Below the pieces are notes generated by a model. It saw only the letters and a list, made by a program, of their open reading frames with translations. It ran no database searches and was not told the origin of the DNA. This document shows positions 15,733-62,088 of a stretch of DNA of 62,088 bases, one piece after another; the first letter of the stretch is position 1; each line of letters opens with the position of its first letter. Made by a program: the position numbers and the translations under genes. The DNA comes from Candidatus Omnitrophota bacterium (lineage in GTDB: Bacteria; Omnitrophota; Gorgyraeia; 2-01-FULL-45-10): NCBI GenBank assembly GCA_041648975.1, contig JBAZNZ010000011.1, positions 1-62,088 on the forward strand, given 5' to 3'.

Positions 15733-15775
15733 ACCTACGAGGTGTGATTACTTCGACCCGTCACACCTCGTAGGT
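15733..15775. repeat. REP-like palindromic element, same family, copy 3
   Basis: Arms ACCTACGAGGTGTGA (15733-15747) and TCACACCTCGTAGGT (15761-15775), with loop TTACTTCGACCCG. It lies between the hppA stop and the APC permease start. Confidence 0.85.
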
Positions 15776-32826: not shown

Positions 32827-33663
32827 ATGGAAGTGAAAAATTGTTATAATTGCGGATCTTCTGACCACCTATTTTACGCTGAGGAGAATGGCTTTAACCT
32901 GGTGAAATGCGCCGGATGCGGCTTATTATTCGTAAAGAACCGTCCGGATGACGATCAAATATCCCAGGCGCATAAACAGGGCAAACATGGCGGCGTAAAC
33001 ACATTTGACATGACCGGCAATTTTGATAATAGCAAAATATCAAAATATTTAAATATTCTTGACGACATGTTTAAGGGGAATCTGGGAAATAAAACAACGT
33101 GGCTTGACATCGGTTGCGGACACGGCGAGTTCATAATGGCTGTTCAAAAATACAGCTATGGAAAAATTACCGCTACAGGGACGGAGCCGAATATCAAAAA
33201 ACAGGGGTCAGCGCGCAGGAGAGGCTTGAACGTCGGCTATTTCGATATAGACTCCCATAGCGAAAAGTACGATGTCGTATCAATGTTGAATGTATATTCA
33301 CATCTTCCCAACCCTCCTTCATTTATCAGGTCTGCGCGAAAATTATTGAAAAAGGGCGGCGAGCTTATTTTAGAGACAGGAGATACCGCAAATTTTTCCG
33401 CGGCGGATCACTATAAGCCTTTCTTTCTGCCGGATCACTTGAGCTTCGCATCCGAAAAGATCGTTGTGAATATACTGGAGCGCATGGATTTTGAGATCTT
33501 AAGCGTACAGAAATACCCCCTCATAGGATGCGGTTTAGGCACTATTGCCAAAGAACTTATTAAAGCCCTGCTGCCCAAACATAAGTCCCGGATATGGTCG
33601 TGTTTCAGGCAAAAAATGTATTCAAAAGCAGACATGTTTATACGGAGCGGATTAAAGGATTAG
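32827..33663 (+). CDS. class I SAM-dependent methyltransferase with N-terminal zinc ribbon
   Basis: From the ATG at 32827 it reads MEVKNCYNCGS...KCAGCG, then motif I DIGCGHG. The track ORF starts at an upstream TTG at 32719. Confidence 0.75.
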   Translation: MEVKNCYNCGSSDHLFYAEENGFNLVKCAGCGLLFVKNRPDDDQISQAHKQGKHGGVNTFDMTGNFDNSKISKYLNILDDMFKGNLGNKTTWLDIGCGHGEFIMAVQKYSYGKITATGTEPNIKKQGSARRRGLNVGYFDIDSHSEKYDVVSMLNVYSHLPNPPSFIRSARKLLKKGGELILETGDTANFSAADHYKPFFLPDHLSFASEKIVVNILERMDFEILSVQKYPLIGCGLGTIAKELIKALLPKHKSRIWSCFRQKMYSKADMFIRSGLKD

Positions 33664-33674
33664 AAATCGCGTTT

Positions 33675-33860
33675 TTATCTTTCGCGGATAAAAAGTCCGT
33701 CCACCTGAAGAAGCTCTGCAGTATCGGGATGGCGCAATTCCGACAAATGGCCGCGATAGACAAAACCTCTTTTGCATCCATACCGCAAATACGCCTTGAA
33801 TGCGCAGTGTATTGAAAGTACCATCAGTAATTGTTCAAGCCTTCTACAGAATTGATTTCA
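33675..33860 (-). pseudogene. possible C-terminal fragment of a GNAT-type acetyltransferase (tentative)
   Basis: My minus-strand translation is ...LSIHCAFKAYLRYGCKRGFVYRGHLSELRHPDTAELLQVDGLFIRER*. It loosely fits the GNAT C-terminal pattern (A..Y...GF...G). There is no N-terminal part, and it is squeezed between convergent genes. Confidence 0.3.
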
Positions 33861-33871
33861 AATATCCGCCA

Positions 33872-34816
33872 TCACAACCATTTGGAAATTATATTTTTTG
33901 CGCTTTTCCGGGCAGAATAAAAAAATCGTTGTAATTTATAAAACGCCCTCGTCGTTACGTTCGGCATCGTCCTCTTCATATGCTCTTCCACTATTTTTAC
34001 TACACACGGATCTTCTTCCGGTTTTACCTTTTCTACTACGATAGGACGGTCAGACATATTTACACTATATAACTTTGCATAAGGTGTCACATTATGACTA
34101 GAGTCCGGGGCAATCCCTATATGATCGACAAGGGACCTGCCGGGGAAAAGATTCAAGCTATTTCTCAGATATGAGGACGCATACCAGCGGGCAGCCCACG
34201 CATCGCTCAGGCCCGTAGACTGCTTTTTAAGCGTGCGCATGAATGGGTACATTCCATTCATGTCAAATGCTTTGCCGCATTTCAATTCTTCCAATTTACG
34301 CAAAAGCTTTTTCCCATCCTTCTCGAAAAAACCCCAGGCTCTCTTCCATGTCGCCCATCCATAAGAGGAAAACATTTTTAAAAAAAAGGTTTCCGGAATT
34401 TTTCCAGTTACTCCGAAAAAGTGACCGCATACACTGCTTACCCTGTCTTCATTGCTGTATAGCTCCAAGGCTTCGTTCATAAATTTCAAAAAATACGGAG
34501 ACAGGTCCAGGTCGTCTTCCAAAACAATTACCCTATCGCGCATATTTACGATTTCGGTAACCCCGCTGATTATCGATTCGGCCAATCCAAGATTAGTGTC
34601 CTTTTCGATAATTTCTATTTTTTTAAATCCGTCCACTTTTCGTAAAAATTCCCTCATTTCAGATACGCGTTTTTCATCATAATTGGATTTTGGACCATCT
34701 GAAAATACAAAAAGATCGCTCTCGCCAGCCAAAAGGTTTTTTTGTAAAGCCTCGATGGTCCTCTTGGCAAAGAAAACTCGGTTATAAACAAATAATGCTA
34801 TGGGTGCAAGCCTCAT
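33872..34816 (-). CDS. GT-A fold glycosyltransferase, GnT-I (GT13)-like
   Basis: 314 aa. PIALFVYNR... and VLEDDLDLSPYF resemble the GnT-I EDD block (recall). Confidence 0.55.
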   Translation of the reverse strand: MRLAPIALFVYNRVFFAKRTIEALQKNLLAGESDLFVFSDGPKSNYDEKRVSEMREFLRKVDGFKKIEIIEKDTNLGLAESIISGVTEIVNMRDRVIVLEDDLDLSPYFLKFMNEALELYSNEDRVSSVCGHFFGVTGKIPETFFLKMFSSYGWATWKRAWGFFEKDGKKLLRKLEELKCGKAFDMNGMYPFMRTLKKQSTGLSDAWAARWYASSYLRNSLNLFPGRSLVDHIGIAPDSSHNVTPYAKLYSVNMSDRPIVVEKVKPEEDPCVVKIVEEHMKRTMPNVTTRAFYKLQRFFYSARKSAKNIISKWL

Positions 34817-35652
34817 TTTTTAACACCTGCGATAACCAGAAGACGGTTAAATACATTACGGAAATATCTTACGAATATGATCAACAGGTCACGGGTAAAA
34901 GACACAACCCAGAATCTTGAATGTTTTCTATTGAAAATATAACGGGTCCGGATATTAAACGGATTTTTTATTGCGAAAATCCATTTTGCATACTCGATGG
35001 GATTGATTATATATAAACGCATCTTTTCTTCCTTGCTTTCGTTCGCATAGACAACCGATTTAGCGCACACTATCAGATCGAAACCGGCCTTTTTGGCGTT
35101 AATGCTGAAATCTTCGTCTGCCGCCGATTGAGGCAACGCTTCATCAAAAAAACCTATTTTTTCGAACACAGGGACAGGTATGAGCATTCCCCTCCCTACT
35201 AACATATCCATCTTGATAGCTTCCTGCCCTTCAGGCAACTTACACCCCTTGTTTTTCATAACAGGAAAAGTAATGTTTCCTGATTTTATATCTATGGCAA
35301 GCGCGCCGATTAAAAGACCCGGATTATTTCCGGCGCATTTCACGATATTCGCCAGAAAATCATCCCTGATCTCGACATCATCATTTAACGTCAATATGAA
35401 GTCTTCTTTTTTGCACCCCGGCAGCACACTCTTTATCCCTAAATTGACAGATTTTGTCCACCATAGATTTCCATCCCCGCTCAGCAAGACAACGTCGGGG
35501 AATTCGTTCCTTACCATATCGCCTGTGCCGTCGCTGGAACCATCGTTAATTACAACGCATTTAAAATCTGTGAACGTCTGTCTCTTTAAACAGGCAAGGC
35601 AGTTTCGAGTTAGCTCTCTTCGATTATGTACCGGAATTATAATATGAATCAT
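34813..35652 (-). CDS. family 2 glycosyltransferase
   Basis: 279 aa with IIIPVHNR, a DGSSDGT block and LNDDVE. Confidence 0.8.
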   Translation of the reverse strand: MIHIIIPVHNRRELTRNCLACLKRQTFTDFKCVVINDGSSDGTGDMVRNEFPDVVLLSGDGNLWWTKSVNLGIKSVLPGCKKEDFILTLNDDVEIRDDFLANIVKCAGNNPGLLIGALAIDIKSGNITFPVMKNKGCKLPEGQEAIKMDMLVGRGMLIPVPVFEKIGFFDEALPQSAADEDFSINAKKAGFDLIVCAKSVVYANESKEEKMRLYIINPIEYAKWIFAIKNPFNIRTRYIFNRKHSRFWVVSFTRDLLIIFVRYFRNVFNRLLVIAGVKK

Positions 35653-36854
35653 AATAATGTACTCTTTGTCTCATTATTTTGCAAACATACAAAAGCTAAT
35701 CCCAATATAGCAAAAACAAATTCCGGTAACTCATAGGAAAGGGACCAAAGAAAAGCGCTGGACAAAAAAGAGAATAATGCAATATTTTCCAAAGAATATT
35801 GTTGTAATTTCAAAAACCTAACCACATAATACACAAACGAACCAAAGATAAGCCATAGACCAAATATTCCATTATATAGTAAAGCCGTTAAGTACCCGCT
35901 ATGGAAATGATGGCCGGTTAGTTTACCTGGGATAAAGTCATATAGTGGTGGTAACTCAAATCCTTTGAAACGCATGCCGAATAAAGAATTTTTTGCAATA
36001 AACGGCATATAGTATTTATATTGTTCATAGCGCCAGGCGCCTGTTCCTTTTTCTTTAAATTCAGATATCTCCTTAAACCTCATGTTCAAAAACTCCATAA
36101 TCTTATCATATTTTTCTCCTCCAAAAATTACAGCATGCGACAATATGACTAATATTATAAGAATTGCGAAAAAAGAGAGTCGAATATGCTTGTTTTTCAA
36201 ATCTACATTCTTACACCTCAGCAATAAAATGCTGAATATAGATAATGACCAAATACTGCATATCCATACAGTCCTGTGTTGTTCTATAAGGATTATGAAA
36301 AAATTAGTTATGATAAAAGCAATATTAATCTTTCTCCCGTTTTGAAAATAACTAATTATTAAAAGAAGATTAGCCAGAAGTAATAAATATACATAATGAG
36401 CGGCTGTGGCCCTTTTAACCTCGAAAATATTGGATAAATAAGTCGTCTTACTAAGTATAATAATATATACAATGCCACATGCCGAATAGCACAATCTTCT
36501 TATGAATCGCATTACGTCACGTTGATCCGAAAACAAGCCATAAAAAGCAAAAGTATATAATATATAACTCAAAAATAAAATAATATGCGGATATAACATA
36601 ATTTTACCGTATCGCAAAATAGATTCCGTGGATAAAAACATATAGCAAATCAACAAAAATATAAAATTTATCTTAAAATACCTAACATTCATTTTATTTG
36701 TTACAAAATAAAACAGCGATACTAGAAAACAAAACAATATCCCATAGTCTTCTAACATGCCGAATAACTTTCTTTCGGGATCAAGCAAATCCGTTGAGAA
36801 TATGAGACACAACAGATAAGCCAGGATTAGAAAGCTAATTATTTTTTTTTCCAT
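35649..36854 (-). CDS. O-antigen polymerase/ligase-like (Wzy/WaaL family) polytopic membrane protein
   Basis: 401 aa, very AT-rich, with ten or more hydrophobic segments and one larger loop. It sits inside the glycosyltransferase cluster. Confidence 0.55.
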   Translation of the reverse strand: MEKKIISFLILAYLLCLIFSTDLLDPERKLFGMLEDYGILFCFLVSLFYFVTNKMNVRYFKINFIFLLICYMFLSTESILRYGKIMLYPHIILFLSYILYTFAFYGLFSDQRDVMRFIRRLCYSACGIVYIIILSKTTYLSNIFEVKRATAAHYVYLLLLANLLLIISYFQNGRKINIAFIITNFFIILIEQHRTVWICSIWSLSIFSILLLRCKNVDLKNKHIRLSFFAILIILVILSHAVIFGGEKYDKIMEFLNMRFKEISEFKEKGTGAWRYEQYKYYMPFIAKNSLFGMRFKGFELPPLYDFIPGKLTGHHFHSGYLTALLYNGIFGLWLIFGSFVYYVVRFLKLQQYSLENIALFSFLSSAFLWSLSYELPEFVFAILGLAFVCLQNNETKSTLL

Positions 36855-36911
36855 TACACATATCCAGTTTAATTATTACATTTATCCCGACTTTTCAATA
36901 TCTATTGACCG

Positions 36912-37556
36912 CTATAAATGCAGTGACATTTCGCTGAATACCATAATATTATTAATATACCAATAAAAAATATCCGGTATGCTTGATAGTTTTTTTCTTA
37001 ATTTATCCGTACGATTTTTGTCGAATTCAAAATTGTATTTTTTGAATCTCTCAATCCACCATACATAAGGCTTTTCATTACAGTGGTCTGTGCCTCCTTG
37101 ACCTACGGGTGCGGCTCCAAATAGGATGGTAGAACTTGACATAATCAAATTGTTAATAAGCATATCAGAATATTTTTCTTCTATATGCTCTCCCACTTCT
37201 AAGCACATACATAAATCATATTTATGCGTAACGGTATACTTTCTCCTTATGTCGAATAATACAAAATTTTTAACATTTATTCTGGAATATTTTCTATTGG
37301 CTTCGCTACCGTCAATTCCTAAGATTTCTATTCCTTTTCTTTCAAAATATTCCAATATGGTTGCTGTGCCGCACCCAAAGTCAACAACTGATTGCGGATG
37401 AAATTCAATATCAATAATTTCGCCCATTTTGTTGGCGAATTTTAAACCCTGAAGATTTTCAATAGCAAAAGGTTCATTATAAATAAAGTTAATATCTTTT
37501 TTAAAAATTTTTAATATTTTAATACGCGCTTTTTTTATAAAGCTCCTTAACCTCAT
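36912..37556 (-). CDS. class I SAM-dependent methyltransferase
   Basis: 214 aa with motif I VVDFGCGTA and the later block LEVGEHI. Confidence 0.7.
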   Translation of the reverse strand: MRLRSFIKKARIKILKIFKKDINFIYNEPFAIENLQGLKFANKMGEIIDIEFHPQSVVDFGCGTATILEYFERKGIEILGIDGSEANRKYSRINVKNFVLFDIRRKYTVTHKYDLCMCLEVGEHIEEKYSDMLINNLIMSSSTILFGAAPVGQGGTDHCNEKPYVWWIERFKKYNFEFDKNRTDKLRKKLSSIPDIFYWYINNIMVFSEMSLHL

Positions 37557-37607
37557 ACGACTTTCCTTTCATTTATACACAATACTAGTTTAACCCAAAA
37601 CGATTTT

Positions 37608-38576
37608 TTATCCATTTTTATGCATGAAGATTTGTAACGTCATCACTTGCTTTAAAGTCTGAGTAATATAGCCCGCGCACCTTATTATTTTACATTCTAA
37701 TAAAATAATGCGTTTTTCATCGTTACCCGATATGTACCCCAAGCGATATACCAAGTATTTAAGCATATAGTACATAACGTGGAGGATTTTTTTAATGGCT
37801 ATTATCAGGCCAAACTTTACGCCTCTTTCATGCAAATCAATAATCGCTTCGGATATGCCTTCCTGATACAGTCTGTTCCTAAGCCAGTTTTTGTTTAGCC
37901 GTGAAAGATGAAGCTTATGATGGATTACCGCATCCGGTGAATAATAAATCATGCCTCCCTCTCGTCGTACTTTACAGCAAATATCAGTTTCATCTCTGGA
38001 TAACAATAAATTATCCTTTCTGCCTATACTGGTATTGAACAGCCCTATTTTATCAAATATTTTCTTTTTAAACGACATATTTGCTCCAACAGGATAGCAT
38101 TTATCCTTAAGCAATAAGTATTTATCTCCAAGATCAAATCTTCCCGTTACGAAATATGCTATTTCATCCGGCAGCCACTTGGGCATGTCGGTATACCCCA
38201 ACGGCAGTATCTTGCCTCCAACAACATCAGCATCATATTCATCATAGGCTTTTAATAGATTTTTTAACCATTTTTTATCTGCCACAGCATCGTCATCAAT
38301 AAAAGCCACTATATCCGCTTCGGAATATTTGAGTCCGGCATTCCTGGCAAACGAAAGTCCGATTTGATTCTCAATTATATGTTTTATTCTAGGAGCTTGA
38401 ATGTGAAGATATTTGTCGACTAATTTTTTGGTATCATCCTGCGAGGCGTTATCGACTACTATAATCTCATATTTATCCTTATCAAAATCTTGGTCAGCAA
38501 GGCTCTTTAAAGAATTCTCTAGATCTTGATATCGGTCTTTAGTGCAAATGATTGCGGATATAAGAGGCTTAGGCAT
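37608..38576 (-). CDS. family 2 glycosyltransferase
   Basis: 322 aa with SAIICTKDR, VDNASQDDT and FIDDDAV. Confidence 0.8.
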   Translation of the reverse strand: MPKPLISAIICTKDRYQDLENSLKSLADQDFDKDKYEIIVVDNASQDDTKKLVDKYLHIQAPRIKHIIENQIGLSFARNAGLKYSEADIVAFIDDDAVADKKWLKNLLKAYDEYDADVVGGKILPLGYTDMPKWLPDEIAYFVTGRFDLGDKYLLLKDKCYPVGANMSFKKKIFDKIGLFNTSIGRKDNLLLSRDETDICCKVRREGGMIYYSPDAVIHHKLHLSRLNKNWLRNRLYQEGISEAIIDLHERGVKFGLIIAIKKILHVMYYMLKYLVYRLGYISGNDEKRIILLECKIIRCAGYITQTLKQVMTLQIFMHKNG

Positions 38577-38637
38577 AGTTACTATTTTTTACCCCATTAG
38601 CATACGCTGCATAAGTCAAGTCTATTTTAATTAATAA

Positions 38638-39894
38638 CTAATGTCCTTTTATGATCTTTTTAATTGCATTCTTAACATCCTCTATCGTAACTTGCGCAAT
38701 ACAATGTGATTCGGAGCTAACACAATCATATACACATGGGCTGAGCGGATGTCTCGGATTAACTATAACACAGCGAGTTTTCCAAGGCGCGAACCTAAAT
38801 GGGGATTTTGCCGAGAATTTGTTTCCGGAATCCGACCAGGAGCTTATTTCTATTACCGGAATCTTCATTGCCGCTGCTATATGCATTACACCTGTATCGT
38901 TTCCAAGATAAAATCTGCAATATTTCAATAAACCCGCTGTTTGTCGAAGGGTCGTTTCACCCATTATATTTATTATTCTGTCTGAGAATTCCTTTTTAAT
39001 ATTATTTTCGATATAATCGCCTATTAATCGCTCATTTTTATTACCCAAAAGAACTATTTTAGACGCTGTTTCTTTTAAAAACCAATCGAGCATATCCAAA
39101 TACCTTTCTTTTGGCCACATCCTAAGATTTTCTTGTGCAGCGGGGCCAATTCCTACGAAAAAACATTTTGCATCTATGTTAAATCGCCGTAACAACGACT
39201 GTGCAAAAGTCGAATCATCTTCTTTTAACCAGAGTTCTAAATTATCCCTTTCAATTTTTCCTCCGATAAACGTGATAACATCTAAATTGTGCTCAACCTC
39301 ATGCTTAAGAGTTTTATCTGATATTACATGAGTAAAAAGAATATCATATCTTTTGTTCAATTCAATTTTTTCAGGCCTTACATTTTCAGAATACCCTACT
39401 CTTAACCTGGCTCCGCTAAAATATATTATAAATGAACTATTACGGTTATCAACATCCCAGCGAGGTAAGATCGATAAATCAAAACGTCTTTTCCAAAGAT
39501 GAAAAATAGAAAATTTTAGAGCGCTGATGTGCCACATTAAGTATGCAAAGATACCGGGCTCTTTCCAATCATGTGTTAATATCTCATCAACATATGGGCA
39601 AAGTTTTACTAAATTAAGAGCTTCAGGCCTTACTATCAACGTAATCCGCGCATTAGGTAAATTTTTGCGCAGCTCTCTTAAAAAAGGTGTAGTTAATACT
39701 ACATCGCCAATCCCGTCGAGGCGTACAACCAATACCCGTTTTAAATGAGGCATGTCGATCTTTTTTCTATTCCAACGCCTGCCAAGAATCCAAAAGACCG
39801 GCTCACCGATAAAGAAAATAAACAAAGGCAAGGGGAAGATAATCAATATCCGTCGGATAACGATTTTACAAAGAGTTATGACCTTGTTTGACAT
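38638..39894 (-). CDS. family 9 glycosyltransferase (heptosyltransferase-like)
   Basis: RLDGIGDVVLTTPFLRELRKN and GNDTGVMHIAAAM are GT9 hallmarks. The start is uncertain: TTG 39921, ATG 39894 or ATG 39753 (MPHLKRVLVV, the classic GT9 N-terminus). Confidence 0.8.
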   Translation of the reverse strand: MSNKVITLCKIVIRRILIIFPLPLFIFFIGEPVFWILGRRWNRKKIDMPHLKRVLVVRLDGIGDVVLTTPFLRELRKNLPNARITLIVRPEALNLVKLCPYVDEILTHDWKEPGIFAYLMWHISALKFSIFHLWKRRFDLSILPRWDVDNRNSSFIIYFSGARLRVGYSENVRPEKIELNKRYDILFTHVISDKTLKHEVEHNLDVITFIGGKIERDNLELWLKEDDSTFAQSLLRRFNIDAKCFFVGIGPAAQENLRMWPKERYLDMLDWFLKETASKIVLLGNKNERLIGDYIENNIKKEFSDRIINIMGETTLRQTAGLLKYCRFYLGNDTGVMHIAAAMKIPVIEISSWSDSGNKFSAKSPFRFAPWKTRCVIVNPRHPLSPCVYDCVSSESHCIAQVTIEDVKNAIKKIIKGH

Positions 39895-40564
39895 GCTCAC
39901 AATCCGTTTTTTTCGCAACAATATGAAAACTCCAGTATTTATCCTTACTGGGATTATATTCTATTATTTCCATTCCATTTTTTTTCAAAAATTTATTTAC
40001 AACTTCGGCAGTAGGAATCCATTTATGTCCATAACCAACCCACGGACCTCCCCTATTCCACATCTTCATTGATTTATGGGGTAGATATAGAAATAGAATT
40101 CCCTGTTGTTTGATTTTCTTAATCCATAGCTTTAAAGCAGCCTGCCATTTGTCAAGGTGTTCAAGGCAATGTGAACTAAAAACATAATCTAAACTGTTAT
40201 CAGGAAAATTGTCTAATTTGTAAGCATTTTGATGCTCTTCGTTCAATATTGGGATTGCTCCCGGCAATGGCCACGCATCAGCGCCTATGTCAATCCCCTT
40301 GCCAATGCAATATTGTTTTGCTTTATCAACAATAAACGAACTCGCATTTCCTTTATTCAGGTATTCAGGATACAGATCTCCTTTGTACTTATAATACATA
40401 TCTCCGTTTTTATAAATCTGTACTATCTCCCGGCTTCTTAGCGACACGATAAAATAATGCCAGTGTTTATGTAAATAAAGAATAATTAACCAAGGGTTTT
40501 TTATTGCTTTTAAAATTTTCGCTGGCATACTTCTACTCATCAATGAATTATATCCATTTATCAA
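39866..40564 (-). CDS. class I SAM-dependent methyltransferase (Methyltransf_11-like)
   Basis: 232 aa with GIDIGA... and VFSSHCLEHL blocks. Confidence 0.5.
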   Translation of the reverse strand: MINGYNSLMSRSMPAKILKAIKNPWLIILYLHKHWHYFIVSLRSREIVQIYKNGDMYYKYKGDLYPEYLNKGNASSFIVDKAKQYCIGKGIDIGADAWPLPGAIPILNEEHQNAYKLDNFPDNSLDYVFSSHCLEHLDKWQAALKLWIKKIKQQGILFLYLPHKSMKMWNRGGPWVGYGHKWIPTAEVVNKFLKKNGMEIIEYNPSKDKYWSFHIVAKKTDCEHVKQGHNSL

Positions 40565-40660
40565 TATAAAAATAAATAATATGAATGCTTTTTATATAAA
40601 ACGAATTTTATGCCGATAGCTATATCAGCATACCATCTAATTTTGCAAAAGTAAATGAAA

Positions 40661-40703
40661 GTCCTATAAATTGTCCTATAAATTGTCAAGCCAAAATAGA
40701 AAT
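40661..40703 (+). repeat. short tandem duplication (GTCCTATAAATT x2) abutting shared motif GTCAAGCCAAAATAGAAATG, copy 1
   Basis: The motif at 40684-40703 recurs at 42154-42187. A third partial GTCCTAT follows. Confidence 0.8.
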
Positions 40704-40773
40704 GTCCTATTTTGTTGGAAACAGCCCTTTCTCTTTTGGGGTAACCTTTTCTTTTTGTTGATACTGTGTTGGC

Positions 40774-40910
40774 CTTTCGACGAGGGCATACGACAAGATA
40801 TTGAAGGTCACGCGCACAATCGCAGATATTGACGGCAAGGATATCAAGAAGCACGCCACATCTCGGAGGCGACCTCCTACCGCAGCCTGGACAGGAATTT
40901 GTGGGATTAA
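40774..40910 (+). pseudogene. comM: 3'-terminal fragment of a comM/yifB (Mg-chelatase-like ATPase) gene, frameshifted
   Basis: My translation is LSTRAYDKILKVTRTIADIDGKDIKK, then after a -1 frame change HISEATSYRSLDRNLWD*. This matches the conserved ComM/YifB C-terminus (LS.R...R.LKVARTIAD......H..EA..YR..DR). The other ~450 aa of the gene are absent. Confidence 0.7.
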
Positions 40911-41035
40911 TTGCGCAGCAAATTATCCGAAAAAGTAGACTAGCCTTAAGCTTCGTATAATATAAAGACGTTAAATAATAAAGCTATCCACAGCCATATT
41001 TATGCAACAAAATTATACGAAAAAATGTTTCAAAA

Positions 41036-41923
41036 CTACACCTCAACCCATGGAAAATCCTTAACAGTTAGGAATCGTTCTTTTATGCCCCAAAGAACTT
41101 TTGGGTGCTTAAAACATTCCTGTATCGGTATCTCCGGGATCTCTTTTTCCCCGAATGGATAGCGAATAAAAAAAGCATTGTATCCATATTTATTACACCC
41201 AACAAGGCGATAATTTTTTTTCTTTGCTAATTTTACTAAAGCAGGTAAAGACGCTCCGCAAAAATTCGGCATTCCACGGGTTAATGGGTACGTATATGCA
41301 TTAAAATCGTCTTTATATGGAGCTGTTAACGCCTTATCCGGGCCGATTATATCTTGGTACTCAATTACAACAACTCTGGGGTTAATTACACTTATTGCTT
41401 CCCATATCCAGTAATCCATACCGTCCATATCTATTGATAAAAGATCTATTTCTCCCATAAAACCATTTTTCTTGATAATCTCATTGACATTATCCCGGGT
41501 TATCCAAGAATGTACAAAAACAGGAGGATATATCCAGGTATGTATATTTTTCTTGTAAAATTCTTGCCCTTCTTTGACTAGAGTCTCGTTACCGTCTACT
41601 AGCAGCCCATGCCATCCATGATTAATAATTAGATTTGCAGTATTGCATTCAATCCCATCTCCAGCACAAATCTCGACTGACTTTTTAATAGCCGCTCCAA
41701 TTATTGAGAAAATATATAGCAGAATACCATCTTCATCTGTCTGAGAAAAAACTTTAAATCCAACCTCATCTATACCTGGGAGGCGATTTTTTGACTCGGC
41801 AAATAATTTATAAGCCAACTTTAATTGCAGCTGACAAACCGCGGAGGAGTAATTCTCTTGTTTAAGAAGAGGGGAAACTAAAAAGCCCCTAGCTTTACAT
41901 GCTATCTTTTTTAATAAATTCAT
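41036..41923 (-). CDS. FkbM-like methyltransferase family protein
   Basis: 295 aa. SQTDEDGILLYIF...VEICAGDGIECNT..L....GW.GLLVDG and DLLSIDMDGMDYWIW fit the FkbM-type pattern (recall). Confidence 0.5.
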   Translation of the reverse strand: MNLLKKIACKARGFLVSPLLKQENYSSAVCQLQLKLAYKLFAESKNRLPGIDEVGFKVFSQTDEDGILLYIFSIIGAAIKKSVEICAGDGIECNTANLIINHGWHGLLVDGNETLVKEGQEFYKKNIHTWIYPPVFVHSWITRDNVNEIIKKNGFMGEIDLLSIDMDGMDYWIWEAISVINPRVVVIEYQDIIGPDKALTAPYKDDFNAYTYPLTRGMPNFCGASLPALVKLAKKKNYRLVGCNKYGYNAFFIRYPFGEKEIPEIPIQECFKHPKVLWGIKERFLTVKDFPWVEV

Positions 41924-42132
41924 ATTTTTTCTTTCTTTATTCTATCTATGTAGTTACAAAAATCTAGGATTGTTATATTTTTTTGCTATATTGATTTTAT
42001 TCAAAATGCACTATTTTTATAAAAACTCCCTCGCCTTCCCTAACCATAGTAACTAGCTACTTACCGTAAAACATGATTATATACATATATGAGCTATATT
42101 TTATCACAAGTATATGATTATAGAAATAAATT

Positions 42133-42187
42133 TCTGATATGTGTCTGATATGTGTCAAGCCAAAATAGAAAAGCCAAAATAGAAATG
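42133..42187 (+). repeat. short tandem duplication (TCTGATATGTG x2) abutting GTCAAGCCAAAATAGAAA plus a second AGCCAAAATAGAAA unit, copy 2
   Basis: Sequence 42154-42187 is GTCAAGCCAAAATAGAAAAGCCAAAATAGAAATG. It lies directly upstream of the -35 box at 42190. Confidence 0.8.
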
Positions 42188-42189
42188 AT

Positions 42190-42218
42190 TTGACCTCGAA
42201 ATGATCAAAGGGTATAAT
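42190..42218 (+). promoter_or_regulatory. sigma70-like promoter for the ABC exporter gene
   Basis: TTGACC (42190-42195), a 17-nt spacer, then TATAAT (42213-42218). Confidence 0.6.
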
Positions 42219-42256
42219 ATGGACTTATAGCCCTGAAGAAGAAAGCATGAAATATC

Positions 42257-44092
42257 TTGCGATTTCAACGACCAAACATTAAAATACTGTCCAGCCTACT
42301 CGCAGCATGGGACTTACTCCAGAAAACCGGCGTAAGTGTCTATTATCTTATAATCTCATCAATCCTCGCGATAGTTTCCAGCATTTTTGAAGGCATCAGC
42401 GCGATCACTCTTATACCATTATTAAACGGGGTAATACATGTAGATTTTAGTTTCACTAAAGAAAATAAAGCATTTTCTTATCTTATTTATATATTTTCCG
42501 GCAATCTCAACCTTTCCAATACCGCTATATTCATAATCCTTTTAGTAATCGTTTTCCTATCGGCTGTGTTAAAAAATATTTTCCAATATCTCTCCGCTTT
42601 GAGTTTTTCATATTTTTCGTGGCAGTCAATTAATAAGTTACGTACGTCTATTTTTGACCGCTATCTCTCATTCGGAAAATTATTTTATGACCGATCAAGC
42701 GCGGGATACCTCCAAACTGTTATGCTGGATTATACAAACCAAATTTCCCAGAGGATGCTGCAAGCAAACGTAGCGTTGACTCAAATATTTCTGCTTGTCA
42801 TATACTCTATTTTAATGATTTTCATATCATGGAAACTTACGTTAGTTATAATTATTATCTCCCCATTTTTTTACTTTGGCTCGCAATGGCTTATTGTAAA
42901 GATCAAGAAAAACTCCAACGCTTATACCGAATTTTACGCAGCTATGAGCCGCAAGCTGCAAAATGTTCTTTCCTGCATTCCGTTGGTTAAAGTCTATAAC
43001 AACGAAGATGGAGAAAATAGGGATTTCATTCGCATAAATAATATTACTACAAAACTCGAGTTCGGCCTCGACAAGAAGTATTACCTGATCTTCCCCTTGC
43101 AGGAAGTAATCATGCTCTTTGTCATACTCCTTTTGGTATCCGCGATAGCTTTTATGGCGGCGAGGGGAAAACGCGACCTGGGTGAATTCCTTGTGTATTT
43201 CTATGTTTTAAAAAAATCCGTAACTGCAATAGGAGGGTTAAATACTTTCAGGGGATATATTTCAACGATAGACGGCCCTATTTCCGATATAATGAAAATG
43301 TTTGACAATAAAGATAAGTTCTTCGTATCAGACGGCTCGGAAGAATTTACCGGGCTTAAAGAAACTATCAGATTTAACCATTTGAAATTCTCTTATTTTG
43401 GTAACGAGAAAATGGTCCTGGAAAATATTAATTTTTCTATTAAGAATGGCTCTCTCACGGCGATAGTAGGTGAGACAGGAGCCGGCAAGACGACCCTGAT
43501 AAACCTCCTTTTACGATTTTATGATTGTCCCCCATCGACTATTCTCATTGACAATGTAGACATTAGAAAATTTAGCACGAAATCTCTCATGTCCCATATG
43601 GCGCTAGTATCGCAGGAAGGATTGATATTCAACGATACTATACGGAACAACATAGTATACGGCTTGAAGGAGAAGGTGTCCGATAAAGACTTGAACGAGG
43701 CTATCGCGAAAGCTCGCCTAAGCAATTTTATCAACAGCCTCCCCGCCGGCCTGGATACGGTTATAGGTGACCGTGGCGTGAGGCTTTCAGGCGGCGAAAA
43801 ACAGCGCCTCGCGATCGCAAGAATGCTTCTTAAGCCCGCGGACATAATCATCCTTGATGAAGCAACTAATGCACTGGATACGCAGACTGAAAAATTGATC
43901 GAGGAATCAATTTCAGAGTTGATAAAAAGTAGAACGGCGATCGTGATCGCCCATAGACTGTCCACCATAAAAAATGCCGACAAAATCGTAGTTATACAAA
44001 ATAAAATATTGGCAGAAGAAGGCACATTGTCAGAATTGTTGGAAAGGAAAGGCGCGTTTTACCAATATTGGCAAGCACAAAAATTTTATTGA
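42257..44092 (+). CDS. ABC exporter, fused TMD-NBD (MsbA/PglK-like lipid or lipid-linked-glycan flippase)
   Basis: 611 aa with a 6-TM domain followed by GETGAGKTT, LSGGEKQR and IIILDEAT. The only in-frame start near the 5' end is the TTG at 42257. Confidence 0.85.
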   Translation: MRFQRPNIKILSSLLAAWDLLQKTGVSVYYLIISSILAIVSSIFEGISAITLIPLLNGVIHVDFSFTKENKAFSYLIYIFSGNLNLSNTAIFIILLVIVFLSAVLKNIFQYLSALSFSYFSWQSINKLRTSIFDRYLSFGKLFYDRSSAGYLQTVMLDYTNQISQRMLQANVALTQIFLLVIYSILMIFISWKLTLVIIIISPFFYFGSQWLIVKIKKNSNAYTEFYAAMSRKLQNVLSCIPLVKVYNNEDGENRDFIRINNITTKLEFGLDKKYYLIFPLQEVIMLFVILLLVSAIAFMAARGKRDLGEFLVYFYVLKKSVTAIGGLNTFRGYISTIDGPISDIMKMFDNKDKFFVSDGSEEFTGLKETIRFNHLKFSYFGNEKMVLENINFSIKNGSLTAIVGETGAGKTTLINLLLRFYDCPPSTILIDNVDIRKFSTKSLMSHMALVSQEGLIFNDTIRNNIVYGLKEKVSDKDLNEAIAKARLSNFINSLPAGLDTVIGDRGVRLSGGEKQRLAIARMLLKPADIIILDEATNALDTQTEKLIEESISELIKSRTAIVIAHRLSTIKNADKIVVIQNKILAEEGTLSELLERKGAFYQYWQAQKFY

Positions 44093-54158: not shown

Positions 54159-54439
54159 ATATTACCCAGCATCTTCAGCGTATCTCCGTATTCCCTCACG
54201 GTCTTCCTTACAGCCGCGTCTATCTCTTTTTTCTGGCTATCTTTAAGCGTTCTGCCCAATATGCTGTCTAAATACTTGCGGGGTATGGCAAAGCTCCGCC
54301 CTATACGTATGGCCTTTATCTGGCCCTTCTTGACCTTTTTATAAACGGCTATCCTGCTTATACCAAGTATACCGGCAAGCTGTTGTATACTGATGAACCC
54401 ATTTACCGCCATATGGCGCCTTTCGTTAACTTCATTCAT
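54155..54439 (-). CDS. excisionase/MerR-like HTH (HTH_17) DNA-binding protein, putative antitoxin of Doc
   Basis: ISIQQLAGILGISRIAVYKKVKKGQIKAIRIG is a helix-turn-helix. The stop overlaps the doc start. The start is uncertain (TTG 54451, ATG 54439 or ATG 54412). Confidence 0.7.
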   Translation of the reverse strand: MNEVNERRHMAVNGFISIQQLAGILGISRIAVYKKVKKGQIKAIRIGRSFAIPRKYLDSILGRTLKDSQKKEIDAAVRKTVREYGDTLKMLGNM

Positions 54440-54444
54440 ATAGG

Positions 54445-54458
54445 TTAACAATTGTTAA
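54445..54458. promoter_or_regulatory. perfect 14-bp palindrome, candidate operator of the HTH-doc operon
   Basis: TTAACAATTGTTAA lies at the 5' edge of the HTH gene. Further GTTAAC hexamers occur at 54425-54430 and 54473-54478. Confidence 0.5.
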
Positions 54459-54503
54459 GCTATATAGATAAAGTTAACATACAATCACTGAAAATGCAAA
54501 TAA

Positions 54504-57794: not shown

Positions 57795-57869
57795 ATCACC
57801 TCATATGTATTGTCCCCAAATAAAAAAACCGGGTCACGCCTTGCGCCCGGTTTGGATCAATATGCGGTT

Positions 57870-57957
57870 TGTGCTCTCATTAGCTTATGGCCCCTTACTG
57901 GGCGTTATTATACCATTGTGGCAACATTCCGGGCAACTCATTTTAAGGTTATGGCGG
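57870..57957. repeat. about 88-bp direct repeat, copy A (carries a minus-strand sigma70-like promoter facing tspO)
   Basis: It aligns with 60080-60168, and the core ACATTCCGGGCAACTCATTTTAAGGTTATGGCGG is nearly identical. On the minus strand it reads TTGCCC (57936-57931), an 18-nt spacer, then TGG-TATAAT (57915-57907). Confidence 0.8.
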
Positions 57958-57993: not shown

Positions 57994-58036
57994 ACCTACG
58001 AGCACGAATCACTTAAACTCGTTCGACCTCGTAGGC
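57994..58036. repeat. REP-like palindromic element, same family, diverged copy 4
   Basis: The sequence is ACCTACGAG-CACGAA-TCACTTAAACTCG-TTCGAC-CTCGTAGGC. The outer arms are conserved, the inner arm changed on both sides (CGAA/TTCG still pair), and the loop is similar. Confidence 0.65.
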
Positions 58037-58192: not shown

Positions 58193-59269
58193 ATGAAAAG
58201 TATTCTAATAACCGGAAGCGCCGGGCTGGTAGGATCGGAGTCGGCGCTGCATTTCGCAAGTAAAGGACACACGATAATCGGAATAGATAACGATATGCGG
58301 GCGAAGTTTTTTGGGCCCGATGCGTCTACCCGCTGGAGTCTTCGTAATTTGCAAAAAGAGCTTGGCGGAAGATACAGCCATTTCAATGTTGACATACGAG
58401 ATAAGAAAAAGTTGGGAGAGATATTTAAGTCAAGGTACAGGAATATCAAGGCCATAATCCACACGGCGGCGCAACCTTCACACGACTGGGCTGCAAGAGA
58501 TCCGGAGACGGATTTTTCTGTCAATGCGGTCAGCACGTTAAATCTTCTTGAACTTGCCAGAAGATATTGCCCTGAAACGCCTTTTGTCTTCATGTCAACA
58601 AACAAGGTGTATGGAGACCTCCCGAATCGACTTCCGCTCATAGAAAAAAAGACGCGGTGGGAATTGGCTAGAGGGCACAAGTATTGCGATGGCATAGATG
58701 AAACGATGAGTATAGATCAATCCAAACATAGCCTGTTTGGCGCATCTAAGATAGCGGCTGACGTCCTTGTGCAGGAATATGGAAGATATTTCAACATGCC
58801 CACGGTATGTTTCCGTGGAGGCTGCCTTACAGGGCCAAACCATTCCGGTACGATATTGCATGGATTTTTGTCTTATCTTATGAAGTGCGCTGTAACCGAA
58901 AAAGAGTATTTTATATTCGGATACAAAGGTAAGCAGGTGCGTGATAATATACACAGCCATGACCTCGTCAGAATGTTTGATGAGTTCATAAAGAGGCCAA
59001 GGCGGGCAGAGGTGTATAATACGGGCGGTTCCAGATTTAGCAATTGTTCTATGATAGAGGCCATAGCTTTATGTGAGGAAATAGCGGGAAATAAGGTCAA
59101 GACAAAGTATTGTACAAAAAATAGAGAAGGTGACCATATTTGGTATATTTCAAATGTTAATAAATTTAAGATGGACTATCCTAAATGGAATTACGAGCAT
59201 GGTATAGAAGCGATTCTTGCGGAGATATATACGAAGAACAGGGATAGATGGATAAAAGAGAAGAGTTAG
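58193..59269 (+). CDS. extended-SDR NAD-dependent sugar epimerase/dehydratase (CDP-paratose-2-epimerase-like) with Phe in the catalytic Tyr position
   Basis: 358 aa with [16 protein letters not shown] and GKQVRD. The expected YxxxK reads FGASK (nucleotides ttt ggc gca tct aag). Confidence 0.75.
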
Positions 59270-60024
59270 AATTCCCGCGGCGATTGAATGTTCTGGGAGC
59301 TAACGTGAGCCGAGTTGACTACGAGAGCGCCGTTAAGATAATCATGTCGGCCGCTAAAAAACGCGCAAGCATCGGTGTAACAGCGCTTGCTGTACATGGA
59401 GTAATGGAGGGTTATTTCAACAAAGAGTTTTTAGGTCAGCTAAACAGTCTTCATATGCTCAATCCTGATGGCCAGCCGGTACGATGGGCGTTAAATTTTC
59501 TTGGCGCTAAAGAGTTAAAGGACAGGGTATATGGACCGACTTTAATGCTGAAGATATGTGAAAGTGCTGAGCGGGAGAAGCTGCCGATATACATATACGG
59601 CAGCAGGGAAATTGTGTTGAAAAATTTGGTAGACAATCTAAAGGCTAAATATCCGGATCTCATAATAGTAGGGGCCCAAGCGGATAGATTTAGAGATGCT
59701 ACGACAGAGGAAGACGTTACAGACATAGCCGCCGTCAACAATTCTGGCGCTCGTATAGTATTTGTGGGCCGCGGCTGCCCGCGTCAGGAAAAATGGATTG
59801 CGCAACATATCGGCACGATAAATGCTGTCATGATCGGCGTTGGTGCCGCGTTCGATTTTCATGCCGGGATATTAAAGCAGGCTCCGAAATTTATGCAGGA
59901 CCATGGGCTTGAGTGGATATATCGGCTTTTGAAAGAACCAACACGCTTATGGAAACGGTATTTAATCCTCAATCCGTTATTTGTCATACTGTTCACCGCA
60001 CAGCTAATAAAAAGAAAATTCTAA
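59248..60024 (+). CDS. WecB/TagA/CpsF-family (GT26) glycosyltransferase, second copy
   Basis: 258 aa with [19 protein letters not shown]....AP.FM...[15 protein letters not shown]. It overlaps the epimerase gene by 22 bp. Confidence 0.85.
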
Positions 60025-60079
60025 TAATTGTAGACGTCCTATTTTTGGTACAGCCTATAGAGTGTACCTTTTTAGCTGT

Positions 60080-60168
60080 ATGTACTTTCATAGCCTTATA
60101 GCCCCTTATCTGGCGCCATTGTATCACTACAGCGACATTCCGGACAACTCATTTTAAGGTTATGGCGG
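60080..60168. repeat. about 88-bp direct repeat, copy B
   Basis: It aligns with 57870-57957. The equivalent minus-strand boxes are TTGTCC, 18 nt, then TACAAT, pointing antisense into the GT26 gene. Confidence 0.8.
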
Positions 60169-60543: not shown

Positions 60544-61590
60544 CTATTTTTTTTCTAACTTCAGCAGTTCTTTGGATACGGCCACCGCGCGTTCGACAAG
60601 GTCTCCGGCTTGCCGCTTAAGTTCTTTACTCGACGCGACATAATTTACGTTATTGTCCATGTCCTCGGCCTCCCAACCGCGGCTATGCGCTATAAAGGGG
60701 TTCCGGGGAAACAAGAATCCGAGCTCACTGAAGAACATCATCATGTTCCCCGCGACTGCCTGGACGTTATCCTGGCCTCCGGTGATTATAAAAGCCGCGA
60801 CCTTATCCTTTATGAGCGGCTTATTGTGGATGAGGATCTGGTTCTCTACGCAATTCAACCGCTCGGCCATCTTATAATACAGCGAACTCGCGTTCCCCCA
60901 GCGGATCGGAGTAGCGATGATAACGACGTCCGCCCAAAAGACGAGCGCCTCATATACCTGGACCAGCTGGTCTTTCTCATCGATCTGCGTAAAGGTGCAC
61001 GGCCATGTGCAGGCCCTTTCGTCTATCGAATAGAAACCGCCGCAATGGTTGAACTTCAAATCTCTAAGTTTTATCAGCTTCGTTTCCGCCTTTAACTTCG
61101 AACGTGCATGCGCCAGCGCCGCGTTAAGCAGGTCTTCGGATGTGGAATACCTCGGCAGGCTTTTGCTCATAGGCGTCGTTGAAATTCCGGCTACCCTGAT
61201 CGGGCCCTTCTCCCGTTTTACTTCCCGGGACAGGGGATGTACGGGATGGGGATATTCGACTCTCTTGTTCGATGGTTTTAAATTTATGAAGAGGCGGCCG
61301 GACTTTTCTTTTACCTCATGCCTGGGAAGACAGGCCTTCTCAAATGGGGGCTTGGCATGGCCGGTCTTTCTGTGGTACGTCCATCCGTGCCAGGGGCATA
61401 TGACATAATCGCCGTCCATCCTGCCTTTGCCCAAAGGGCCTTTTTCATGATTACACTCTCCCGACACCGCGGTGAATTCACCGTCCTTATAAATAAGCGC
61501 GATCCGGGTCTTCCCGGCGATAACTTGCCGGAGCGCTTTTTTCTTCAATTCCTTGACAGGCCCGGCATTGATCCAATTTTTATCCGGCAT
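60544..61590 (-). CDS. Rieske [2Fe-2S] domain fused to a flavodoxin-fold NAD(P)H-FMN reductase / iron-sulfur-flavoprotein-like domain
   Basis: 348 aa. The N-terminus has CNH...(17)...CPWH (Rieske). The C-terminal ~200 aa has IRVAGISTTP..., a Cys cluster HC..(11)..C..PC, and VIIATPIRWGN / FIITGGQDN blocks as in Isf/FMN-reductase proteins (recall). Confidence 0.75.
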   Translation of the reverse strand: MPDKNWINAGPVKELKKKALRQVIAGKTRIALIYKDGEFTAVSGECNHEKGPLGKGRMDGDYVICPWHGWTYHRKTGHAKPPFEKACLPRHEVKEKSGRLFINLKPSNKRVEYPHPVHPLSREVKREKGPIRVAGISTTPMSKSLPRYSTSEDLLNAALAHARSKLKAETKLIKLRDLKFNHCGGFYSIDERACTWPCTFTQIDEKDQLVQVYEALVFWADVVIIATPIRWGNASSLYYKMAERLNCVENQILIHNKPLIKDKVAAFIITGGQDNVQAVAGNMMMFFSELGFLFPRNPFIAHSRGWEAEDMDNNVNYVASSKELKRQAGDLVERAVAVSKELLKLEKK

Positions 61591-61602
61591 AGGATCTCCT
61601 AA

Positions 61603-62088
61603 TCTATTTCGTATATTCCGGCTACCCGGGCGGTGATCTTAATAGGATCAATTTTCGCCTGACTAAGTCAGTGGCAAAAATTGGCGGCGTCGAAGCCAGA
61701 GGCTTCGGCATCCGCCATCATTTTCATGAGAAAATGATGGCGGTGTGTTCTCGAGTCAGTTCGAACATATTTTAGGGGGTTCCCCCTAAAATAACCGCCC
61801 ATAAACTATCAACCCTGCTCGGCATCGTCCCGCCCTAACCCTAACCACAGGCGGGACTTTCGCGTCCTCGCTCCACAAGCTACAACACGAAAAACCGTAC
61901 GCCCCTACAGGCTCGTCCGCACCCGCCTGCTACAACCTAAAATGATCTCGTGGACGGCGGGTTGCCGAGCCACCCACGCGAAAAGACTCGAGAGCGAAAG
62001 GCAAATTTTGGGGCGCGGCAAAATTTGCCTTTCGCCCAATGACTCAAAATAGTTATGCTAAGCCTGCCGAGCCATCAAGAATACCTAA
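61603..62088 (-). ncRNA. unclassified hairpin-dense non-coding region: candidate large structured RNA or very long 5' leader of the Rieske-flavoprotein gene (strand and extent uncertain, may continue off-window)
   Basis: No ORF of 60 aa or more lies on either strand. At least eight inverted repeats are present, including perfect stems of 14 bp (61712-61743), 12 bp (61768-61793) and 17 bp (61994-62035). One CCGCC arm is shared between two adjacent hairpins. Distal complementary 8-mers are also present. Confidence 0.35.

Follow-up and report, generated by a model that had tools for sequence, protein, structure and literature searches.

Integrative elements of the large serine recombinase (LSR) type, such as those of phiC31, Bxb1 and TnpX, combine an adjacent LSR gene with quasi-palindromic junctions and a short core common to the element end and the target, and their att sites are duplexes of approximately 40–50 bp without a conserved, folded extension of 300 nt. 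In the invertible segments of the Gin, Cin, Pin and Hin systems, the gene of a small serine invertase lies just outside a segment bounded by inverted repeats of approximately 26–34 bp. GOLLD, ROOL and HEARO/omega RNAs are large, multi-branched, covarying non-coding elements of mobile DNA, often located near tRNA genes. A structure that is kept while its sequence varies, with flip/flop-like loops and a role at element boundaries, is characteristic of attC sites, the T-shaped hairpin termini of adeno-associated virus (AAV) type and plasmid single-strand origins, which depend on tyrosine recombinases, HUH/Rep proteins and single-stranded intermediates. Repetitive extragenic palindromes (REPs; approximately 35 nt and high-copy), bacterial interspersed mosaic elements (BIMEs) and bidirectional terminators are GC-rich perfect hairpins found between genes at operon ends, and can insulate or stabilise transcripts. 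The element described here is a non-coding 'end module' of approximately 320 nt, located in the last 0.5 kb of a 62,088-nt stretch of DNA (the window) from a Candidatus Omnitrophota bacterium (contig JBAZNZ010000011.1, positions 1–62,088), next to a gene for a fusion of a Rieske domain and a flavodoxin-like domain (the Rieske-flavoprotein gene).

The module shares properties with each of these systems and differs from each. An adjacent LSR gene is present for ten copies of the module, although absent at the window's own copy, and the junctions are quasi-palindromic, with a short core common to the element end and a tRNA, as in LSR elements; here, however, the LSR gene resides in its own unit of approximately 1.6 kb with inverted repeats of 106–152 nt, and the islands carry two inverted modules of approximately 330 nt. 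As in invertible segments, the serine recombinase gene lies just outside a segment bounded by inverted repeats, but the repeats are approximately 330 nt long and structured, the recombinase is large, and a single orientation is seen in all 12 recombinase-adjacent loci. The multi-branched covarying fold, its occurrence in mobile DNA and its proximity to tRNA genes recall GOLLD, ROOL and HEARO; unlike these, the module is shorter, has no match in Rfam, is built almost purely of Watson–Crick pairs and occurs as inverted pairs with precise DNA ends. With attC sites, AAV-type termini and single-strand origins the module has in common a fold that outlasts sequence change, perfect pairing, flip/flop-like loop inversions and a location at element boundaries, but none of the enzymes or intermediates of those systems was found here. 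Finally, hairpin H7 of the module and hairpin H2 beside it are terminator-like, but in contrast to REPs the module is a 320-nt composite with a three-way junction, present at 1–2 copies per genome.

Module limits and family

An initial annotation of the window had described its last 0.5 kb as free of open reading frames (ORFs) and dense in hairpins, and had proposed a structured RNA or switch. The observation is confirmed and the interpretation is partly supported. The ORF listing of the window contains nothing longer than 44 amino acids past position 61602 on either strand, and the palindromes lie where the annotation had placed them (Table 1). Most were recovered by a repeat search; two 7-bp stems, CGAAGCC/GGCTTCG (in 61683–61716) and ACCCGCC/GGCGGGT (in 61921–61962), are shorter than the minimum length of that search and were seen by eye and in predicted folds. 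The 498 nt from 61591 to 62088 fold with a minimum free energy of −216.7 kcal/mol on the minus strand (z-score of −7.2) and −196.9 kcal/mol on the plus strand (z-score of −9.4), values equalled by none of 100 dinucleotide shuffles in either case; the module by itself has z-scores of −4.0 (minus) and −6.7 (plus) against shuffles. A coding frame running in from beyond the contig end was ruled out, all minus-strand frames being closed within 36 nt, and on the plus strand only one 11-codon open stretch exits. Rfam 15 yielded no match for the whole window at the gathering score and none for 61400–62088 at E ≤ 10, and ARAGORN detected no tRNA or tmRNA in the window. An rRNA or a CRISPR leader was excluded, Rfam giving no match and repeats being absent. 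BLAST of the 0.5-kb region against plasmids and phages gave no meaningful match.

The region is a composite of one complete module copy (61738–62052), which makes up about two thirds of the hairpin-dense 0.5 kb, and junction or host DNA (61603–61737). A BLAST search against the fetched loci matched window 61737–61791 to the far end of locus L006 (94.5% identity over 55 nt), where the match lies at a contig end beside a serine recombinase gene and a tRNA-Ser. A 23-mer from this matching stretch led to one JGI contig, L008, which aligns to window 61738–62052 with 81% identity over 332 nt; its block has a divergent serine recombinase gene on one side and an XRE-type helix-turn-helix (HTH) gene on the other. 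Homology to both L008 and L006 begins exactly at TGGCGG (61738), and the conserved block stops at ..CTCAAAATA (62052). Remoter copies were found upstream of recombinase homologues in L010 (two copies), L012 and L013, and a 23-mer scan of the GTDB genomes returned no match. Copies repeated within single genomes set the unit at approximately 320–340 nt, from the TGG end to 10–26 nt beyond H7. Such pairs occur on one contig (L063/L084, 337 nt, 100% identity; L082/L097, 324 nt, 98.8%; the two copies a and b of L010, 432 nt, 83%) or on separate contigs from the same genome (L041/L076, 340 nt, 97.9%; L037/L090, 323 nt, 99.7%).

The family was collected from the GTDB representative genomes with a three-anchor pattern derived from the conserved unpaired motifs (GCTCGGC..GCGTCCTCRC..GYTCGTCCGC), which retrieved 84 loci. 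A covariance model of the core only (R1), built from six close relatives with a structure that we assigned, gave 41 matches at E ≤ 0.01 in the fetched loci, representing 39 distinct sequences. All low-GC pattern loci score with R1, and none of the approximately 50 high-GC chance matches does; copies in L012 and L013, as well as a second one each in L062 and L069, were detected by the model but not by the pattern. The window copy matches the minus-strand model at 61811–61976 (184.6 bits, E = 2e-51), and is the only one in the 62 kb; the GTDB representatives carry 1–2 copies per genome. The hosts are mostly Candidatus Omnitrophota, together with several metagenome-assembled genomes (MAGs) of Planctomycetia/Planctomycetales, one Woesebacteria MAG and unclassified bacteria. 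A marginal match in Bacteroidales (L035, E = 8.5e-4) is probably false. Among the viral contigs of IMG/VR, the exact patterns (three module segments and the three-anchor pattern) gave no match, and none of the 33 loci found with a two-anchor pattern was confirmed by the covariance model. Rfam detected only tRNAs and one group II intron in 18 family loci, with no GOLLD, ROOL or HEARO; the intron domain (RF02001, 46.4 bits, L053:4464–4636) lies approximately 1.3 kb from a module copy. The full-text literature searched contained no description of such a module, the closest items, both unrelated, being Aca-bound 5′UTR motifs and RNA-based prophage origins.

The module is thus a discrete, conserved, covarying, low-copy, non-coding element of mobile islands, and the ~320-nt family, without match in Rfam or in the literature searched, is previously undescribed. 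The initial annotation had named recurrence of its palindromes as a REP or miniature inverted-repeat transposable element (MITE) family as something that would refute its proposal; a repeat family does exist, in the modified form of a low-copy one borne by mobile elements.

Some members are long-form variants (L012, L023, L043, L046, L049, L053, L054, L059, L060, L062, L066, L069, L070, L073, L075 and L088), in which helix P2 is preceded on its outer, TGG-end side by a further conserved domain (..TTGGCGCTCGCTTGGCCGCTCGCTTC..AATGCGTGTGCG). Other members have a different module, GGTAGCCTTCACAAGGAGAAAACCC.., in place of the TGGCGG..GTTCGAAC arm.

Conserved structure

The core of the module is a three-way junction composed of helices P2, H5 and H6 and containing conserved unpaired motifs; it is flanked by hairpins H4 and H7, which remain hairpins in other members though their sequences differ. 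Covariation was assessed over the 23 pairs of the covariance-model alignment of 39 distinct sequences, with shuffled sequences and slid pairing partners as controls; the alignment is fitted to the model, so the figures lean towards the structure, but the slid-partner control is still far lower. Standard pairs occupy 94.7% of cells (69% in shuffles and 29–41% with slid partners), double-changed cells number 175 (43 and 9–32, respectively), and the covariation score is 0.538 (0.119 in shuffles and at most 0.076 with slid partners). Changes on both sides occur in 19 of the 23 pairs. The structure is clearly selected or maintained. A multi-branched structure that matches none of the Rfam families, which the initial annotation had suspected, is borne out by its conservation across homologues, by compensatory changes beyond controls and by the negative Rfam search.

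The annotation had further noted distal complementary 8-mers, all of which exist: 61817–61824 with either 61963–61970 or 62065–62072, and 61750–61757 with 61985–61992. The pair GCTCGGCA/TGCCGAGC (61817/61963) is the closing helix of the three-way junction, P2, and covaries across the 39 sequences, with compensatory changes from UA to GC and from GC to AU. The alternative partner at 62065–62072 falls outside the conserved block, and the pair CTCGAGTC/GACTCGAG does not hold as a conserved helix, occurring only in the window and its closest relative, L008. GGCGGT/ACCGCC likewise occurs in only a subset of members, without covariation.

Two further candidates were rejected. Kissing between the loops of H5 and H7 is not supported, because loop complementarity is inconsistent among members; the palindromes are not operator sites for a protein, H5 differing between copies a and b of the single element L010. 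In L010 an additional hairpin with a GGGYGSGG loop follows H7, and inversion of a loop with its stems unchanged is seen, for example, between L046 and L060 and between L018 and L063.

Island anatomy

Where two module copies lie on one contig they are always inverted, with their TGG ends outward and 3–5 kb between them; besides the same-contig pairs given above, inverted pairs are present in L062 and L069. Ten of 36 copies are 'canonical', with a divergent LSR gene on the outer side and a gene for a 65-residue XRE/HTH_3 protein on the inner side. The LSR has Resolvase, Recombinase and Zn_ribbon_recom domains and is encoded by ORFs of 480–540 amino acids in most loci. The cargo past the XRE gene includes RadC, DUF2130, an HNH-repeat protein, a PLD nuclease, an OLD-family nuclease and a methylase, as well as an outer-membrane protein predicted from reading of the sequence alone.

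The inverted repeats that enclose the LSR gene (82–100% identity, approximately 1.5 kb apart) are present in 8/8 loci and run into the TGG end of the module. The order is tRNA(→), LSR unit, module(→). The first 6–8 nt of the module are the reverse complement of the 3′ end of the adjacent tRNA: the module starts with TGGCGG at tRNA-Ser ending in ..CCGCCA (L018, L029), with TGGTGGAG at tRNA-Ala ending in CTCCACCA (L063) and with TGGGGT at tRNA-His ending in ACCCCA (L045). In L018 the tRNA-Ser directly adjoins the module (CCGCCA-AT-TGGCGG) without an LSR unit, and looks like an LSR-free junction. The only fully contained island (L084 and L063, approximately 6.1 kb) has CTCCA both at its distal module end and at the tRNA-Ala end. 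In the module arm, TTCGAA lies approximately 5 bp further from the TGG end than it does in the tRNA, a shift that recalls the half-site spacing rule of LSR attP and attB sites. All recombinase-adjacent loci share one relative orientation (12/12: L006, L008, L010, L012, L013, L029, L045, L046, L049, L063, L075 and L076), and no inversion polymorphism was seen.

The LSR units (L029, L075, L063, L045, L076, L049, L046 and L010), of approximately 1.6 kb, lie inserted between the tRNA 3′ end and the module, with a single orientation throughout (for example, L063:1354–2978). Such a unit looks like a minimal, LSR-only mobile unit.

In 8/8 canonical loci, a strong sigma70-like promoter (TTGACW, a spacer of 17–18 nt and a TATAAT-like hexamer) has its −35 hexamer 7–11 nt upstream of the XRE start. 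It faces away from the XRE gene, through H7 and the rest of the module, towards the LSR gene, which corresponds to the minus-strand sense of the window. At the distal copy of L010, the end of the cargo operon enters the module in the same sense. H7 is bordered by A- and T-runs in many members and so resembles a bidirectional terminator.

A second promoter at about −100 faces the first and serves the XRE gene, and the first overlaps the ribosome-binding region of that gene (facing promoters are present in L008, L010, L029, L045, L049, L063, L075 and L076). By analogy, this layout resembles a switch of the Cro/CI type.

Interpretation of the module

The reading that we favour, with a confidence of about one half, is a composite one: an end module with an outer arm that acts as DNA and a folded interior that is transcribed outward, next to junction DNA. 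Two inverted modules with their outer ends outward flank 3–5 kb of variable cargo in small mobile islands, and one island end often adjoins a ~1.6-kb LSR unit whose insertion point is a tRNA 3′ end. The outer ~30 bp (TGGCGG-N17-GTTCGAAC) would work as DNA, as an inverted mimic of the 3′ end of the target tRNA, and, judging from island anatomy, would form the recombination arm or core at the island boundary, a putative recombination site. The inner ~290 nt would fold into H4, the three-way junction of P2, H5 and H6, and H7. Least certain is the part assigned to this interior, which may be transcribed outward from island promoters (on the minus strand in the window) and may control read-through between the island and the outside in the role of structured leader, insulator or terminator. 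The outside is the LSR gene for canonical copies and, in the window, the Rieske-flavoprotein gene. The window copy would then be a solo distal, attR-like end. Because its outer TGGCGG end faces the Rieske-flavoprotein gene, the remainder of the island is expected to the right of 62088.

Several observations weigh against this reading. The promoters are predicted from consensus matches, and the window itself shows none; the inner side of the module lies beyond the contig end, which explains their absence there. The H7 of the window has no U-tract. Core pairs are nearly all Watson–Crick (788 Watson–Crick, 10 G–U and 8 A–C among 843 cells), and a strand bias of wobble pairs is absent from the core and weak in whole hairpins (70 on the minus strand versus 30). 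The H5 stems contain 402 Watson–Crick and 3 G–U pairs read on the plus strand and 401 and 17 on the minus strand, and the H6 stems 27 G–U pairs on the plus strand against 53 on the minus. Both H5 and H7 have the loop GGGYGSGG in one orientation or the other, and this orientation flips between close relatives. An RNA-type strand signature is thus weak or absent in the module, and owing to the pairing restricted to Watson–Crick, the weak or absent bias and the loop flips, folded DNA or a constraint on both strands fits at least as well as a single-stranded RNA. With regard to the outer arm, the junctions are mirror-symmetric and place no crossover, and a simple attP × attB scheme with one central dinucleotide does not fit and was rejected as a way to define it. 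Moreover, the window contains no second copy, LSR gene, XRE gene or tRNA, and the membership of its copy in an island therefore rests on homology.

It is unlikely, though worth serious consideration, that the modules function purely at the DNA level. They would then be long terminal inverted repeats of ~330 bp, with hairpins and a junction that arise in single-stranded or extruded DNA as the island recombines, transfers or replicates, transcription being irrelevant. Strictly Watson–Crick pairs without strand bias, long perfect stems (one with a 2-nt centre) and loops that flip between close relatives would all fit such an element, as would precise ends, inverted pairs with near-100% intragenomic identity, and the physical coupling of the module to the recombinase unit and to tRNA ends. 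Serine recombinases, however, are known to act on double-stranded sites, and none is known to use folded DNA; no relaxase, Rep or HUH gene is among the cargo sampled, the unpaired segment of 40–56 nt inside the junction makes extrusion from the duplex costly, and the conserved promoter points at the module. The module could instead encode a structured RNA that binds or regulates the LSR as a cofactor, guide or directionality control, analogous to the bridge and seek RNAs next to IS110/IS1111 recombinases. The canonical module is immediately upstream of the LSR gene, with which it is probably co-transcribed, conserved unpaired motifs lie beside variable hairpins, and the terminal nucleotides follow the target tRNA. 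Such a partnership is nevertheless improbable: 26 of the 36 copies lack an LSR gene beside them, paired modules occur without any LSR match in islands such as L082/L097, the bases that match the target sit at the DNA junction and no variable target-matching segment was found, and LSRs are not known to need RNA. We give an equally small chance to a selfish, functionless palindromic repeat, non-autonomous in the manner of REPs or MITEs, with stems perfected by palindrome correction at the DNA level. The precise ends and near-identical intragenomic copies, the perfect stems in which one-sided changes are almost absent, and an unrelated REP-like palindrome family in the window would be in keeping with it, but only 1–2 copies per genome were detected (one in the 62-kb window), three phyla share the conserved unpaired motifs and the architecture of the junction, and position and orientation are fixed with respect to cargo, XRE, LSR and tRNA, with consistent pairing round the cargo.

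The explanation offered in the initial annotation, a long cis-regulatory leader (riboswitch or attenuator) of the Rieske-flavoprotein gene with H2 and H3 as alternative hairpins, is largely refuted by comparative context and is very improbable. The minus strand does pass from the module through H3, H2 and H1 to the Shine–Dalgarno sequence and ATG of the gene, outward transcription from the module is plausible, and a consensus scan agrees with the annotation that no sigma70-like promoter lies near the gene (61300–62088). The two hairpins also have CCGCC (61712–61716) in common; but they lie in junction DNA outside the conserved block, and with no homologue of H1–H3 found, nothing supports a conserved switch. 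The closest homologues of the gene (80–82% amino acid identity) have upstream gaps of 47, 132 and 84 nt without the block and with unrelated neighbours, and BLAST of the region against their loci gave no syntenic match, while the block itself stands beside unrelated neighbours in more than 35 loci and has no match to an Rfam aptamer. Since these upstream regions are short and unrelated, the module is not a conserved leader of the redox gene, which is a flanking host gene without functional tie to it, and a false riboswitch candidate is removed from the window.

If the composite reading is confirmed, the modules would constitute a cross-phylum family (Omnitrophota, Planctomycetota and the candidate phyla radiation) of structure-conserved elements of ~320 nt that delimit small cargo islands and show where compact LSR units insert at tRNA genes. 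They would help to locate such islands in poorly studied phyla, together with cargo that includes nuclease-, methylase- and RadC-type genes, and would indicate an LSR family that targets tRNA ends and has structured arms of unusual length, LSRs being wanted as tools for genome integration. The strand-neutral, Watson–Crick-only covariation with loop flips is an unusual evolutionary signature, for which folded DNA, use of both strands and palindrome correction are possible causes. There is a slender chance that the module is a functional component, as RNA or folded DNA, of the LSR mobility system, the LSR needing or being controlled by a three-way-junction element in its recombination arms; this would make it a serine-recombinase counterpart of the bridge and seek RNAs of the IS110 family.

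Junction DNA and the contig end

Apart from TGGCGG at 61738–61743, which is the first six bases of the module, the stretch containing H1–H3 (61649–61743) has no homologue among the fetched loci. H3 consists of this TGGCGG, eight flanking bases and an inverted copy of these, and because its right arm ends in the terminal TGGCGG of the module it is best read as a junction palindrome, not as the arm of an RNA switch; the junction at tRNA-Ser in L018 is comparable. H2, followed on the minus strand by AAUUUUUG, may be terminator-like on that strand, between the module and the Rieske-flavoprotein gene; a consensus scan did not list it there.

The second TGCCGAGCCA in the tail starts some ten nucleotides after the module and looks like the 3′ strand of P2, with the linker, from a further copy of the module; 14 nt later the contig stops. 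The ENA contig k141_2135474 (29.6 kb) matches the window with 100% identity and has the same last base, 62088. The break of two assemblies at this base points to a repeat or a variable or mobile boundary, and the module, if confirmed as an island end, would account for it.

Table 1 Positions of the module, its parts and the flanking features in the window
Feature	Position	Strand	Inverted repeat (length, identity, arms)	Basis or remark
Rieske + FMN_red (flavodoxin-like) fusion gene	60544..61590	-		ORF; Pfam PF00355, PF03358
H1 palindrome CAATTTTCGCC..GGCAAAAATTG	61649..61683		11 nt, 91%, 61649-61659/61673-61683	Repeat search; junction/host DNA
H2 GC-rich hairpin (GGCGG..CGAAGCC/GGCTTCG..CCGCC)	61683..61716	-		Sequence and predicted folds
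H3 perfect 14+14-bp palindrome CCGCCATCATTTTC-ATGA-GAAAATGATGGCGG	61712..61743		14 nt, 100%, 61712-61725/61730-61743	Repeat search
End module, one complete copy	61738..62052			Outer end towards Rieske gene
Outer arm TGGCGGTGTG..N..GTTCGAAC	61738..61766			Proposed DNA-level recombination arm (att core); first 6 nt reverse-complementary to a tRNA-Ser 3′ end (CCGCCA)
H4 hairpin, 12-bp stem, 2-nt centre	61768..61793		12 nt, 100%, 61768-61779/61782-61793	Repeat search; member sequences
Three-way-junction core	61811..61976	-		Covariance model R1; P2, H5, H6
P2 GCTCGGCA/TGCCGAGC	61817-61824/61963-61970			Closing helix of junction
H5	61827-61834/61850-61857		8 nt, 100%, 61827-61834/61850-61857	Repeat search; helix of three-way junction
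H6	61921-61927/61956-61962			Helix of three-way junction
Conserved unpaired motif GCGTCCTCGC	61862-61871			Within junction core
Conserved unpaired motif GGCTCGTCCGC	61910-61920			Within junction core
H7 17-bp perfect hairpin, core GGCAAATTTTG..CAAAATTTGCC, loop GGGCGCGG	61994..62035		17 nt, 100%, 61994-62010/62019-62035	Repeat search
Tail past conserved block, 36 nt	62053..62088			Second TGCCGAGCCA at 62065-62074

Other features of the window

The REP-like palindrome family mentioned above, which is unrelated to the module, is a 43-nt intergenic sequence (ACCTACGAGGTGTGA..TCACACCTCGTAGGT) present three times (2400–2442, 15733–15775 and 57994–58036). A 94-nt direct repeat (78% identity; 57864–57957 and 60075–60168) brackets a pair of genes encoding an epimerase and a WecG glycosyltransferase (58193–60024), and may be a cassette boundary. 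The G+C content falls from approximately 0.5 to 0.29–0.42 over approximately 10 kb (window ~33000–43000), a stretch that may have been acquired; contig k141_2135474 (29,564 nt) would start at approximately window 32525, where this drop begins. Repeats of ~105–109 nt with 61–73% identity and spacings of 270–276 nt and 546 nt at 545–1541 are probably a repetitive coding region. Overlapping arms of a 32-nt palindrome (GTTAACTTCATTCATATAGGTTAACAATTGTT...) lie between genes at 54425–54478.

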